6,334 bases of DNA, taken from a virus (lineage: Duplodnaviria > Heunggongvirae > Uroviricota > Caudoviricetes). How positions within the stretch are numbered: the stretch's first letter is position 1; every line of letters begins with the position of its first letter. The stretch lies in the IMG/VR virus record IMGVR_UViG_2734482594_000010; one strand, 5' to 3'. Made by a program: the position numbers and the translations under genes. The notes under the pieces are model-generated. The model worked only from the letters and a program-made list of their open reading frames with translations. It was not told where the DNA came from and did no database searches. Positions 898-4,496 of the stretch are shown here, in pieces.

Positions 898-1016
898 TGC
901 AGCGGGTGCTTGAGGCTATCTGTCTCAGGCATGAACACCAAAAGGCAGATAGAGAAAAGCCCCAGTTAACATTACGCGTCCGGCAAGACGCTTAACATTA
1001 ATCTGAGGCTCAATCT

Positions 1017-1229
1017 ATGAACGGCAAATCTAGGTTAGCCTCTTACGTGCCGAAAGGCAAGGAGAAGCAGGCTATGAAGCAGCAAAAGGCGATGTTAATC
1101 GCCCTGATCGTCATCTGTTTAACCGTCATAGTGACGGCACTGGTAACGAGGAAAGACCTCTGCGAGGTACGAATTCGAACCGGCCAGACGGAGGTCGCTG
1201 TCTTCACAGCTTACGAACCTGAGGAGTAA
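1017..1229 (+). CDS. mok: mok-like frame: in-frame upstream extension of hok (70 aa), expected to couple translation of hok
   Basis: ATG 1017 in frame with hok. No alternative-frame ORF overlaps hok (frame +1 has stops at 1018, 1036, 1075; frame +2 has no start). Lengths 70/51 aa match the known Mok/Hok pairing. Confidence 0.5.
   Translation: MNGKSRLASYVPKGKEKQAMKQQKAMLIALIVICLTVIVTALVTRKDLCEVRIRTGQTEVAVFTAYEPEE
1074..1229 (+). CDS. hok: Hok/Gef-family type I toxin, 51 aa (MKQQKAMLIALIVICLTVIVTALVTRKDLCEVRIRTGQTEVAVFTAYEPEE), HokD/RelF-like
   Basis: Translation matches the Hok/Gef family signature (N-terminal TM helix, conserved TRKDLCEV-IRTGQTEVAVF-AYE) as recalled. ATG 1074 preceded by AAGGAGAAG. 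Confidence 0.85.
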   Translation: MKQQKAMLIALIVICLTVIVTALVTRKDLCEVRIRTGQTEVAVFTAYEPEE

Positions 1230-1298
1230 GAGACCAGGCGGGGGAGAAATCCCTCGCCACCTCTGATGGGTCAGGCATCCTCAATGCACCCACACTTA

Positions 1299-1324
1299 AC
1301 CCGCTTCGGCGGGTTTTTGTTTTT
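1299..1324 (+). terminator. Rho-independent terminator of the hok transcript (stem ACCCGC/GCGGGT, UUCG tetraloop, then TTTTTGTTTTT)
   Basis: Perfect 6-bp stem 1299..1304 / 1309..1314 with loop TTCG, followed by a T-run, 70 nt after the hok stop. Confidence 0.7.
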
Positions 1325-1367: not shown

Positions 1368-1449
1368 CAAAAATACTTAAGTAGCGCGCAGGGAGAAGAG
1401 GGATGGACCCCGAACAGGGGAGTGCTATTTATCTGGAAGGATTCTGTTG

Positions 1450-1731
1450 ATGAAAATCGAAGAATTACGTGAAATTTTTAGTGAAGATGGCCTCTATACT
1501 GTGCGCGTTGAGAATGGCGCTATTGTCAGCCACTGCCTTCCAGACTACACAATTCTGATAATTCAGCCGTCTTTGCCAGCAGGCACGGGCGGCGCTCTCA
1601 CGCATTTAAATCTGATTGGTACCAGCATCCCCCATGCACTGAAGAACAGGCCGAATGGCTCATTCAGTGTTACCGCAGGCGCGGATGCGAGGTTAAAAAA
1701 GCCCTTAGCCTCGACTACCGTCACTGGATAA
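1450..1731 (+). CDS. Hypothetical small protein (93 aa from ATG 1450; track lists TTG 1447), Qin Rem-like by position. Reading frame appears disrupted; see finding on a frameshift at 1629..1633
   Basis: ORF track entry. SD-like GGAAGG 1435..1440. N-terminal 60 aa look protein-like; the C-terminal 30 aa in this frame do not, whereas the -1 frame from about 1632 to the TAA at 1804..1806 does and abuts the next gene's start. Confidence 0.45.
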   Translation: MKIEELREIFSEDGLYTVRVENGAIVSHCLPDYTILIIQPSLPAGTGGALTHLNLIGTSIPHALKNRPNGSFSVTAGADARLKKPLASTTVTG

Positions 1732-1806
1732 TCTCCGTCAGGCTCCCTTACTCCGAACGGCCAACGCGTCCGTCCCGCACATTCCAGCAACGGATCTGGA
1801 GGTAAT

Positions 1807-2865
1807 GTGCGGGTATTACTTCGACCTGTTCTGGTACCGGAACTCGGTCTGGTTATCGTTAAGCCAGGCCGTGAATCAATGTCAGCATTCCATAACGGCA
1901 GAATACTGGTGGAGCCGGAACCAAAAAGCATGCGTAATCTGCCGTCCGGGGTCGTTCCTGCCGCTCGCCAGCCGCTGGTGGAAGACAAAACATTGCTGCC
2001 GTTTTTCAGTAACGCACGGGTGATTCGTGCTGCTGGTGGTGCTGGTGCATTGTCTGACTGGCTGTTGCGCCATATTAAATCCTGCCAGTGGCCACACGGC
2101 GATTATCATCACAGCGAAACCGTCATTCACCGTTATGGTACCGGCGCAATGGTGTTGTGCTGGCACTGCGACAACCAGCTGCGTGACCAGACATCCGAAT
2201 CACTCGAGCAACTTGCTCATCAAAACCTGTCAGCATGGATGATTGACGTCATCGGTCACGCAATAAGCGGTACGCAGGAGCGTGAATTATCTCTGGCTGA
2301 ATTATCCTGGTGGGCGGTCCGCAATCAGGTGGCGGACGCGCTACCGGAAGCGGTATTACGTCGTTCGCTGGGGTTGCGTGCGGAAAAAATTCGCTCTGTG
2401 TACAGTGAAAGCGACATCATACCGGGAGAGCAGACAGCCACCAGCATACTGAAGCAGCGCACAAAAAATATTGCGTTACTGCCTCACGTCCACCAGCAAC
2501 AGAACCCACCACAGGAAAAGACGGTGGTCAGCATTGCCGTTGATCCGGAGTCACCGGCTCAGTATCTCCAGCGCCAGAAATCACAACGGGAAGAGATGCC
2601 TGTATACACGCGCTGGGTAAAAACGCAGAAATGCATGACGTGTGGCAATCAGGCAGATGATCCGCATCACATCATTGGTCATGGACTGGGAGGGATGGGA
2701 ACAAAGGCTGATGATTTGTTTGTTATTCCGTTATGCCGTAAATGCCGTAACGAACTACATGCCGGAGTAAAAGATTTTGAAGAGAAACACGGCAGTCAGC
2801 TGTTGTTGCTGATTCGTTTTTTAATGCACGCGAGAAATTCGGGTGTTCTGAAGTGGAAAGCATAA
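1807..2865 (+). CDS. DUF968-family prophage protein (YdfU-like, 352 aa) with two HNH-like Zn-finger motifs
   Basis: GTG start 1807 with SD GGAGG 1797..1801. N-half motif CQWPHGDYHH...CWHCDNQL; C-terminal motif CMTCGNQADDPHHIIGHG...CRKCRNELH. Family and position between rem and Q as in E. coli Qin (recalled). Confidence 0.8.
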   Translation: MRVLLRPVLVPELGLVIVKPGRESMSAFHNGRILVEPEPKSMRNLPSGVVPAARQPLVEDKTLLPFFSNARVIRAAGGAGALSDWLLRHIKSCQWPHGDYHHSETVIHRYGTGAMVLCWHCDNQLRDQTSESLEQLAHQNLSAWMIDVIGHAISGTQERELSLAELSWWAVRNQVADALPEAVLRRSLGLRAEKIRSVYSESDIIPGEQTATSILKQRTKNIALLPHVHQQQNPPQEKTVVSIAVDPESPAQYLQRQKSQREEMPVYTRWVKTQKCMTCGNQADDPHHIIGHGLGGMGTKADDLFVIPLCRKCRNELHAGVKDFEEKHGSQLLLLIRFLMHARNSGVLKWKA

Positions 2866-3246
2866 ATGACCGAGCGCATAGAATTTGTTTTACCTTACCC
2901 GCCGACGGTGAACACTTACTGGCGTCGTCGTGGCAGCACATATTTTGTATCAAAAGCCGGGGAGCGTTATCGCCGGGCAGTGGCGCTTATTGTTCGCCAG
3001 CAGCGGCTGAAATTAAGCCTGTCCGGAAGGTTGGCAATAAAAATTATTGCAGAACCACCGGATAAGCGCCGCCGTGACCTGGACAATATTCTGAAAGCGC
3101 CGCTGGATGCGCTGACGCATGCGGGGTTGCTAATGGACGATGAGCAGTTTGATGAAATCAATATCGTTCGTGCTCAGCCAGTATCTGGTGGACGTCTGGG
3201 GGTGAAGATTTATCCCATAATGCTTGAAGGGCAGGTCAAAAAATGA
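2866..3246 (+). CDS. rusA: RusA-family Holliday-junction resolvase (126 aa)
   Basis: ATG directly follows the upstream TAA. Translation contains the RusA acidic catalytic core ...DKRRRDLDNILKAPLDALTHAGLLMDDEQF..., close to E. coli RusA ...[30 protein letters not shown]... as recalled. Confidence 0.9.
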   Translation: MTERIEFVLPYPPTVNTYWRRRGSTYFVSKAGERYRRAVALIVRQQRLKLSLSGRLAIKIIAEPPDKRRRDLDNILKAPLDALTHAGLLMDDEQFDEINIVRAQPVSGGRLGVKIYPIMLEGQVKK

Positions 3247-4064
3247 AACTGGAAGATTTACCGAAATACTACTCCCCAAAATCCCCCGGCCTGACTGATG
3301 CATCGGCCTCAACGTCGAAAGATGCGCTGAGTATCACTGATGTGATGGCCGCGCAGGGCATGACACAGAATCGGGCTGAGATGGGGGTTTCTGCGTTCCT
3401 TGGGAAAATGGGCATTAGTATGAATGACAGAGAGCGGGCAACAGAATTGCTGACAGAATATGCACTCAGTCGGTGTGATCGCGTGGCGGCGTTAAGAAAA
3501 CTCCCGGCAGAAATAAAACCGGCAGTGATGCGTATTATGGCTTCGTATGCGTTTGAAGATTATGCCCGTAGCGCGGCGAGCAAAAAACAGTGCCCCTGCT
3601 GTCACGGAAAAAAATTTATTGAAAGCGAGGTTTTTACAAACAAGATCCAGTATCCGGATGGTAAGCCGCCGGTATGGGCAAAGTGTACGAAAGGTGTGTA
3701 TCCGTCTTACTGGGAAGAATGGAAAAAAGTCAGGGAGGTGGTAAAAGTTGCCTGTCCGGAGTGTGGCGGAAAGGGTGAGGTTTCCACCGCCTGTAAGGAT
3801 TGCCGTGGGCGTGGTGTCGCCATTCATCGTGAAGAGTCGGTAAAACGTGGTATGCCTGTTATCAGAGACTGCCAGCGTTGTGGTGGTCGTGGCTATGAAA
3901 GACTACCATCAACGGAGGCATTTAATGCTATATGCGAGGTGACAAACCAGATAACACGCGCGTCATGGGAAAAAACAGTTAAGAAATTTTATGATGCGCT
4001 GGTGACCCGGTTTGATATTGAAGAAGCATGGGCTGAGCGGCAGTTAAAAAAGGTAACTAGGTAA
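3243..4064 (+). CDS. Putative late-gene antiterminator Q (Qin QuuQ-like, 273 aa) with four CxxCxGxG-type Zn-finger repeats
   Basis: ATGA overlap with rusA. Lies immediately upstream of a lambda-PR'-like promoter with pause element and tR'. N-terminus MKLEDLPKYYSPKSP... resembles Qin-type Q as recalled. Repeats CPCCHGKK, CPECGGKG, CKDCRGRG, CQRCGGRG. Confidence 0.7.
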   Translation: MKLEDLPKYYSPKSPGLTDASASTSKDALSITDVMAAQGMTQNRAEMGVSAFLGKMGISMNDRERATELLTEYALSRCDRVAALRKLPAEIKPAVMRIMASYAFEDYARSAASKKQCPCCHGKKFIESEVFTNKIQYPDGKPPVWAKCTKGVYPSYWEEWKKVREVVKVACPECGGKGEVSTACKDCRGRGVAIHREESVKRGMPVIRDCQRCGGRGYERLPSTEAFNAICEVTNQITRASWEKTVKKFYDALVTRFDIEEAWAERQLKKVTR

Positions 4065-4069
4065 CAAGG

Positions 4070-4109
4070 TTGATTTTTCCGGAATCTGTGGTAAATTCGT
4101 CATAACGAT
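4070..4109 (+). promoter_or_regulatory. Late promoter PR' with Q-utilisation region: -35 TTGATT (4070..4075), 16-bp spacer, extended -10 TGgTAAATT (4089..4097), promoter-proximal sigma70 pause element AACGAT (4104..4109)
   Basis: The -10 TAAATT and the AACGAT placed 6 nt downstream are the same elements and spacing as in phage lambda PR' (established). Starts 6 nt after the Q stop. Confidence 0.7.
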
Positions 4110-4144
4110 GGGCGTTTTATGCCTGACGTTAGAAGAGTTTCTAC

Positions 4145-4168
4145 AACCCGCCGCCGAGCGGGTTTTTT
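4145..4168 (+). terminator. tR'-like rho-independent terminator (stem CCCGC/GCGGG, loop CGCCGA, then T6)
   Basis: Hairpin 4147..4162 followed by TTTTTT 4163..4168, about 60 nt downstream of the predicted PR' start. Confidence 0.65.
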
Positions 4169-4288
4169 ATGACTGAAATCGCGTCAGTACAGTAAACGCG
4201 CTGGTGGCGGTGAATACCTGTCTTTCAGCTTGCTGGCTTTTTCGACAAGAGTTATTGGTGTGTCACGTTAACCGGAAAAGGAAAAGAC

Positions 4289-4486
4289 ATGCTAAAACAG
4301 CAGGATATGACAGAAACCGCCAGAGTGGTGTTTAATGAATTAAGCGTTACCGAACCGGCGACAGTCGGGGAGATAGCGCAGAATACTTACCTTTCACGCG
4401 AACGCTGCCAGTTAATACTGACCCAGCTGGTTATGGCGGGTCTGGCAGACTATCAGTTCGGTTGTTACAGACGCCTTCCGCAGTGA
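4289..4486 (+). CDS. Small putative DNA-binding protein (65 aa) with helix-turn-helix / winged-helix-like segment (PATVGEIAQNTYLSRERCQLILTQLVMAGLADYQ)
   Basis: ORF track entry. SD-like AAGGAAAAG upstream of ATG 4289. Stop codon lies inside the following terminator hairpin. Confidence 0.5.
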   Translation: MLKQQDMTETARVVFNELSVTEPATVGEIAQNTYLSRERCQLILTQLVMAGLADYQFGCYRRLPQ

Positions 4487-4496
4487 AGGCTTTTTT
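4473..4496 (+). terminator. Rho-independent terminator (stem GCCTTC/GAAGGC, 6-nt loop, T6) overlapping the stop of the 4289..4486 ORF
   Basis: Perfect 6-bp stem 4473..4478 / 4485..4490 followed by TTTTTT 4491..4496. Confidence 0.6.

Follow-up and report, generated by a model that had tools for sequence, protein, structure and literature searches.

What does the DUF968 protein of a lambda-like prophage do, and does it carry one nuclease site or two, when its gene abuts that of a Holliday-junction resolvase? The question is raised by a 6,334-nucleotide (nt) stretch of Caudoviricetes DNA (IMG/VR virus record IMGVR_UViG_2734482594_000010; the whole stretch is called the window here), in which an open reading frame (ORF) of 352 amino acids (aa) is followed by rusA and by the gene for a Q-type late-gene antiterminator. 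An earlier note, made from the sequence, had read two HNH-like motifs in the 352-aa protein and had suggested a recombination or DNA-processing module with RusA. Here, we report a computational follow-up. The gene product is an accessory protein from the delayed-early ("nin") operon that lambda-like prophages carry, and the prophage is present here as a cryptic Shigella remnant. Its C-terminal segment is a genuine beta-beta-alpha-metal (His-Me/HNH) domain, related to YbcO of DLP12 and to the core of P1 Ref, and its N-terminal Cys/His cluster looks like a non-catalytic zinc module.

Among the accessory genes of lambda-like prophages, this one is ordinary and has already been catalogued, under the DUF968/YdfU family. 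Jablonska et al. (2017) placed DUF968 together with DUF1364/YbcO in group 7 within the superfamily of His-Me fingers, named YdfU, gave RusA, Q, and antirepressors as its neighbours, and suggested that it functions in recombination (PMC5714182). The central idea of the earlier note was therefore already in print; its remark that the function of DUF968 is undetermined is true of experiment, but not of the domain assignment, the RusA/Q neighbourhood, or the recombination hypothesis. What we add is modest: an N-terminal zinc module, putatively non-catalytic, that the Pfam model does not cover, a His314Arg allele, and the recognition of phage P1 PdcB as a full-length member of the family.

The C-terminal HNH domain and the N-terminal Cys/His cluster

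The 352-aa ORF, its TAAATG junction with rusA, and the ATGA overlap between rusA and Q were confirmed to the nucleotide (Table 1). Pfam DUF968 (PF06147; gathering score, 27.8 bits) matched aa 160 to 344 over profile positions 1 to 169 of 171 (210.3 bits; E = 2.6e-62), and PHROG 96 ("HNH endonuclease") matched along the full length of the protein; neither PADLOC nor NCBIfam returned a match to it. In the closest Escherichia coli relative, the same 1059-nt coding sequence is annotated "DUF968 domain-containing protein" in RefSeq, and the window protein is identical to the RefSeq entry "MULTISPECIES: DUF968 domain-containing protein [Shigella]," which is recorded on at least 1000 contigs and belongs to a 90% cluster with 5135 members. 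A model made with AlphaFold2 from 28 diverse homologues (mean predicted local distance difference test [pLDDT] score, 85.5) divides the protein into a folded N-terminal region (aa 1 to 220), a disordered linker (aa 221 to 245), and a C-terminal His-Me finger (aa 250 to 345). The Pfam DUF968 profile starts at aa 160, and its first half takes in the second half of the helical part of the N-terminal region.

Both of the Cys/His clusters that had been pointed out are present and are conserved in homologues. C93, C118, C276, D303, and P308 are invariant in 28 of 28 full-length homologues (25 to 50% identity), and the ratio of nonsynonymous to synonymous substitution rates (dN/dS) against E. coli copies is 0.15 to 0.19 for the whole gene and 0.04 to 0.06 for the C-terminal domain, its most constrained portion. 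Given these invariant residues and the low dN/dS, the motifs are not due to chance.

The C-terminal HNH motif was borne out by fold, profile matches, and conserved residues alike. The model places a high-confidence beta-beta-alpha unit at aa 285 to 319 (strands 285 to 288 and 306 to 309, helix 311 to 319), with structural similarity to solved His-Me (HNH) members; the structural neighbours of the domain include Cap5 and McrA, and Ref and YbcO match better than terminase-type HNHs. Pfam HNHc_6 matched aa 261 to 328 (28 bits). Searches of PDB sequences with the single protein or the full-length profile gave nothing useful, and the profile of the C-terminal domain found only YbcO (E = 0.24) and, at E = 1.7, EcoKMcrA; the HH...D...CxxCH..LH elements line up in both. 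When the family profile was aligned with Ref (hhalign; E = 3.8e-5), C276/C279 paired with Ref C96/C99, H287/H288 with H112/H113, C310 with C130, C313 with H133, and position 314 with H134. Among the 28 distant full-length homologues, H288 (the final residue of its strand) is kept in 25, D303 in all 28, His at position 314 in 24, and H318 in 25. The CxxC knuckles C276/C279 and C310/C313 are present, with position 313 alternating between Cys and His among homologues, and these four residues are the predicted zinc ligands of a treble-clef site; H288 is the predicted catalytic histidine, and helix positions 314 and 318 are the predicted metal ligands. The annotation "DUF968 / HNH endonuclease" is correct for the C-terminus.

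A second, N-terminal HNH active site was not supported. In 42 homologues, C93 and C118 are each present 42 times, His stands at position 101 in 21 and Cys in 17, and the residue at 121 is His 26 times and Cys 16 times; because Cys and His interchange at fixed positions, the cluster resembles a structural zinc site. Modelled separately, aa 1 to 158 (pLDDT, 92.1) gave a hairpin (105 to 110 and 113 to 118) and then a helix (119 to 125), and a knuckle and hairpin with two ligands at the helix start make a treble-clef layout. At the end of strand 1 (aa 105 to 110), the place of the catalytic histidine, H108 occurs in 3 of the 42 homologues with no other conserved His nearby; H97 and H102 are not conserved. 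No Pfam family, HNH included, matched the N-terminal 157 aa even at E values up to 10, and a Foldseek search of the N-terminal domain against PDB found nothing below E = 2. Internal duplication was rejected as a demonstrable homology, as the N- and C-terminal domain profiles aligned with an hhalign probability of 0.3%. Judged by these patterns, the cluster appears to be a zinc module without a catalytic role and may be a degenerate relative of the His-Me finger; annotating the "second HNH" as a nuclease site would be wrong.

The residue right after the second zinc knuckle of an HNH finger is the third H-N-H element, a metal ligand where the core helix starts; in T4 endonuclease VII, for instance, it is Asn62. 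General knowledge of the superfamily, together with the McrA register, assigns this role to position 314, and the window copy has no metal-binding His or Asn there: the R that follows the second Cys of CRKCRNELH replaces a conserved His, a point absent from the earlier note, and H318 is kept. The replacement takes one base (CGT versus CAT) and is one of just two replacement differences in the C-terminal domain from the nearest E. coli copies. His occupies position 314 in 119 of the closest 120 clusters at 90% identity (Arg in 0 of 120) and in 23 of 23 further C-domain homologues, and it persists in one Shigella flexneri genome (locus L003). Sequencing error was ruled out as the source, since the exact protein occurs on at least 1000 contigs, complete Shigella chromosomes among them; Arg314 is therefore real and fixed in a Shigella lineage. 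With the metal-ligand histidine lost, the nuclease of the Shigella copy is predicted to be weakened or dead, but the chance of this is put at about even, because a sub-clade that contains PdcB has Gln at 314 and Glu at 318. The Shigella allele, with its third HNH residue mutated, is unsuitable as a wild-type representative; WP_001580491 is an example of the E. coli-type protein with His314.

Gene neighbourhood and proposed role

The start-to-stop coupling of the DUF968 gene to rusA is true of the window but not of the family. We compared 81 loci, each from a different species-level genome and mostly from Enterobacterales, fetched with a 10-sequence alignment. RusA lies within 4 kb in 59 of them, but its position varies and is usually upstream: it is directly upstream in 13 loci, further upstream in the remaining RusA-bearing loci, and directly downstream in only 4, which are the Escherichia/Shigella type. 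An antirepressor-type gene (ANT, KilA-N, or ORF6N) is the immediate upstream gene in 44 loci and often stands between an upstream RusA and DUF968. The most constant neighbour is the Q antiterminator, which comes from at least three unrelated families and is directly downstream in most loci; some E. coli copies run straight into Q without rusA (loci L004 and L006 to L008). Lambda-type NinB and NinG were found in 0 of 81 loci by jackhmmer from the lambda proteins, a search that would miss distant versions. Abutting or overlapping frames are general in these operons, with the upstream ORF overlapping the DUF968 start by 4 nt in many loci. Since the position of rusA also varies, the coupling reflects operon packing and lineage gene order; it is specific to the Escherichia/Shigella lineage, and there is no family-wide bond between DUF968 and RusA. 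As to the suggested recombination module, the DUF968 gene does sit in a recombination-flavoured operon with RusA, whose product in the window matched Pfam RusA (61.6 bits; E = 1.5e-16; cut-off, 22.8 bits) and PHROG 34 (E = 4e-56).

The explanation that we favour, at slightly better than an even chance, is a composite one, in which a family nuclease is targeted by its N-terminal region and feeds resolution by RusA. Members of the family would be divalent-metal-dependent enzymes that nick or cleave DNA with little sequence specificity, with H288 acting as general base and residues 314 and 318 holding the catalytic metal. The N-terminal 220 residues would bring the enzyme to its target, either a DNA structure or a partner (RecA or SSB, for instance), and the substrates would be recombination or replication intermediates of phage growth, which RusA would then resolve. 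DUF968, rusA, and Q would be translated from one transcript with their frames coupled, packing of this kind being general operon style. P1 Ref is the working precedent, as a RecA-directed HNH core with a separate DNA-binding N-terminal region: Ref is a RecA-dependent HNH nuclease that cuts D-loops, and its core cuts DNA only when bound in a RecA filament (PMC4330346).

Several points weigh against the composite explanation. In the literature searched, no report of a DUF968 or DUF1364 member cutting DNA was found, nor any biochemical study of a member. The Ref family itself (RecA_dep_nuc; PF16786) did not match, even at E values up to 10 on the isolated C-terminal fragment, and the N-terminus of Ref is a disordered basic tail of 76 aa (PMC4330346), whereas the N-terminal region of the DUF968 protein is folded in the model (pLDDT, 92). 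The N-terminal zinc ligands are predicted from conservation and secondary structure. Linkage to RusA is incomplete, with none within 4 kb in 22 of the 81 loci. A sub-clade (P1 PdcB, P0200, P0205, and P0223) has no His at either 314 or 318, so canonical HNH chemistry may not be required for the role of the family; both CRISPR interference (CRISPRi) and insertion show P1 pdcB to be nonessential, and it is listed as a gene of unknown function (PMC10695390, PMC10067587). A Ref-like, partner-dependent targeting nuclease, in which an N-terminal inactivated His-Me/treble-clef finger would dock on RecA filaments or branched DNA and the C-terminal finger would cut to yield RusA substrates, is in our view distinctly unlikely. 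If it were true, the family would be a widespread prophage-encoded modulator of recombination and DNA-damage lethality, and in the Arg314 allele nature would have supplied a version that binds but is catalytically dead.

In a mainly non-catalytic role, the protein would mediate or regulate recombination, binding either DNA or a partner protein, and would use its HNH fold as a DNA-binding zinc finger, at least in Arg314 and PdcB-type members. Arg314 is fixed in a Shigella lineage and the ORF has stayed intact, the PdcB-type sub-clade has lost His at 314 and 318 but has kept the N-terminal domain and the overall length, and the most constant neighbour is a late-gene regulator (Q in lambdoid loci, lpa in P1). 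Yet most of the family keeps H288, D303, His314, and H318, the C-terminal domain is under the strongest purifying selection, and a position before Q just marks the end of the early operon. Mg2+ binding is still within reach of Gln and Glu, the PdcB residues at 314 and 318, as HNN-type variants illustrate. We regard a mainly non-catalytic role as unlikely, though deserving some weight.

Another reading, two active HNH sites making paired cuts on branched DNA in a co-translated complex with RusA, draws on the two conserved Cys/His sites, each with a hairpin-helix unit, and on D122 and N123, which come after the last zinc ligand, at the place of the metal-binding residue in true HNH enzymes. It is very unlikely, given the variable histidines in and near strand 1 of the N-terminal module, the hhalign and Pfam results for that module, and the rarity of a directly downstream RusA. 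Little credence goes to a nuclease directed against other DNA (host-genome degradation, superinfection exclusion, defence, or anti-defence): many defence systems contain HNH domains, the structural neighbours include Cap5 and McrA, and titles in the reference list of PMC5714182 link Ref to genome degradation and enhanced antibiotic lethality (that of Ronayne et al. 2016, PMID 26765929, points to a Ref phenotype in ciprofloxacin killing), but no PADLOC model matched, synteny within the nin operon beside RusA is conserved, and the P1 homologue has no plating phenotype. Least probable of all is that the protein is a homing endonuclease of a selfish HNH kind, or that it works with terminase to aid cos cleavage (HK97 gp74 type). 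HNH proteins of both kinds would share the C-terminal fold, but this gene holds a fixed syntenic position in the early operon, far from terminase genes and with no intron or intein context; it also encodes about 250 aa of conserved non-nuclease sequence, and Ref and YbcO are the better matches. If the family cuts recombination intermediates as P1 Ref does, it would be an added player in phage-driven recombination and mosaicism and might influence the killing of lysogens by DNA damage.

The window and its source prophage

The window genes run in one direction and are tightly packed, in the order hokD with sok RNA, rem, the 352-aa ORF, rusA, Q, a small ORF, an N6/N4 DNA methyltransferase gene, and tRNA genes (Table 1). 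In complete Shigella chromosomes, a 6.4-kb counterpart sits between two inverted copies of the insertion sequence (IS) IS600 and is part of an IS-riddled cryptic lambdoid prophage. The window ends belong to these two copies and so form a perfect 64-nt inverted repeat (1 to 64 and 6228 to 6291). Short-read assemblies typically break at IS copies, and the window corresponds to the unique DNA left between two of them. An ORF at 33 to 263 begins within the IS600 end.

Table 1. Coordinates of features in the window and of pdcB in the P1 locus
Feature	Position (nt)	Strand	Details
Window ends, IS600 termini	1-64 and 6228-6334		
hok/sok type I toxin-antitoxin locus	904-1229		
sok	904-1079		Rfam, 112 bits
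Hok/Gef ORF	1017-1229		Pfam E = 3e-23
Strong terminator-like hairpin	1298-1315		After hok/sok
rem-like ORF	1447-1731		Pfam Rem in gene table of Shigella loci
Alternative ORF, about 90 aa	ends at TAA 1803-1805		Frame other than that of the rem-like ORF; ends 1 nt before DUF968 GTG
GGAGG Shine-Dalgarno	1798-1802	+	4 nt 5' of GTG start
DUF968/YdfU-family ORF	1807-2865	+	352 aa; GTG start
N-terminal Cys/His zinc module (putative)	2083-2181	+	aa 93-125; predicted ligands C93, H101, C118, C121
CQWPHGDYHH	2083-2112		aa 93-102
CWHCDNQL	2158-2181		aa 118-125
Helical region (model)	2197-2466	+	aa 131-220; long helix 131-154 plus shorter helices
Q/P-rich linker	2467-2541	+	aa 221-245; pLDDT <50 for 225-242
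C-terminal zinc-stabilised His-Me (HNH) finger	2554-2841	+	aa 250-345
CMTCGNQADDPHHIIGHG	2632-2685		aa 276-293
CRKCRNELH	2734-2760		aa 310-318
Codon CGT, Arg314	2746-2748	+	Family: CAT/CAC, His
TAAATG junction	2863-2868	+	DUF968 stop TAA 2863-2865; rusA ATG 2866-2868
rusA, RusA-family Holliday-junction resolvase	2866-3246	+	126 aa
ATGA, rusA stop/Q start overlap	3243-3246	+	
Q-type late-gene antiterminator	3243-4064	+	273 aa; Pfam Antiterm E = 1.6e-53; DnaJ-like CxxCxGxG zinc finger
N6/N4 DNA methyltransferase	4637-5695		352 aa; 3' of Q; PADLOC Type II MTase model PDLC03265, E = 4.6e-163
P1 pdcB	L089:2360-3403		

Immediately 5' of the DUF968 gene (1447 to 1805), two overlapping alternative ORFs are found, and the choice between them differs among gene callers; in E. 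coli relatives, a 92-aa ORF is annotated in the second frame. Downstream of Q, a strong intrinsic-terminator-like hairpin with a T-run (4145 to 4164) lies about 80 nt 3' of the stop codon and is preceded by promoter-like hexamers, TTGATT...TAAATT, read by eye. The region as a whole (4069 to 4174) looks like a pR'/tR' late-promoter unit, the would-be target of Q. A second terminator-like site is at 4473 to 4490. No restriction partner for the methyltransferase was seen within the window, and the enzyme is therefore probably an orphan phage methylase.

The tRNA with a CAT anticodon (5736 to 5811) is called tRNA-Met by ARAGORN and tRNA-Ile in a RefSeq relative. A run of N (5855 to 5895) breaks the tRNA cluster where relatives carry tRNA-Arg twice, and an Rfam STnc100 match (5867 to 6049) spans that run. 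In the left part of the window, a 29-nt direct repeat (367 to 395 and 570 to 598; 86% identity) joins two overlapping small ORFs (274 to 441 and 438 to 782), both of which encode "...IALxSLxAEP...", which suggests the tandem duplication of a small gene. In Shigella loci L084 to L088 (about 12.3 to 16.3 kb), the right-hand IS600 lies between the tRNA cluster and a nanS-p-like esterase gene (DUF1737 plus SASA), which is followed by a holin gene; this is the place where Shiga toxin (Stx)-converting phages carry stx.

Distribution and known relatives

A related Rem-DUF968-RusA-Q block (2.7 kb) was at least partly matched in 4549 of 5426 complete E. coli genomes (84%) and at 80% coverage or more in 2385 of them; RefSeq labels the E. 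coli block DUF968 / RusA / antitermination protein. Full-length homologues were found in 175 phage records, including Stx2 phages, mEp460, SfII, SfIV, ST64B, cdtI, and Klebsiella and Vibrio phages; PdcB of P1 and P7 also belongs to the family. The family is thus very common, with members in Stx-converting, Shigella serotype-converting, Salmonella, Klebsiella, and P1-type phages. Seven library representatives (P0127, P0146, P0160, P0172, P0174, P0176, and P0226) begin with 110 to 300 residues from the N-terminus of a DUF968 protein and continue into a tail-tip, tail-fibre, capsid, or portal domain; deletion in decaying prophages or chimeric assembly probably produced them, and they are uninformative on function.

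An Orf/NinB-like domain has been proposed for Gram-positive "DUF968" proteins (PMC4118853), and no Orf-like fold or sequence was detected in the non-nuclease part of the window protein. Homology to lambda Rap (NinG) was rejected, the one likeness being a local CxxC match at 7%. Rap may be a functional analogue, because it is a His-Me-type, structure-specific nuclease from the same operon region (PMC5714182). YbcO (DLP12/phage 82; DUF1364; PDB 3G27) is single-domain, with a 96-residue PDB chain; it is without the N-terminal region of about 250 aa and the extra zinc site of the DUF968 protein, and its match is weak. In Ref (PDB 3PLW), the core helix is interrupted by a long helical "finger," of which the DUF968 protein gives no sign.

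P1 carries both Ref and a DUF968-type protein. The latter, PdcB of P1/P7, is homologous along its full length (25.6% identity at 90% query coverage; E = 7e-21); it keeps the N-domain zinc ligands, H288, and D303 and differs in the residues at 314 and 318 and in the loss of H287. With no RusA nearby, P1 pdcB stands immediately upstream of lpa, the late-promoter activator gene, as DUF968 stands upstream of Q in lambdoid prophages. Among the closest known systems is YdfU of the Qin prophage of E. coli K-12, a DUF968 protein of the same family and architecture as the window protein, and the hokD-rem-DUF968-...-Q context is common to both; against the YdfU/DUF968 family, the window copy is set apart by Arg314 in place of His and by the rusA gene that follows it, unlike some E. 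coli copies.

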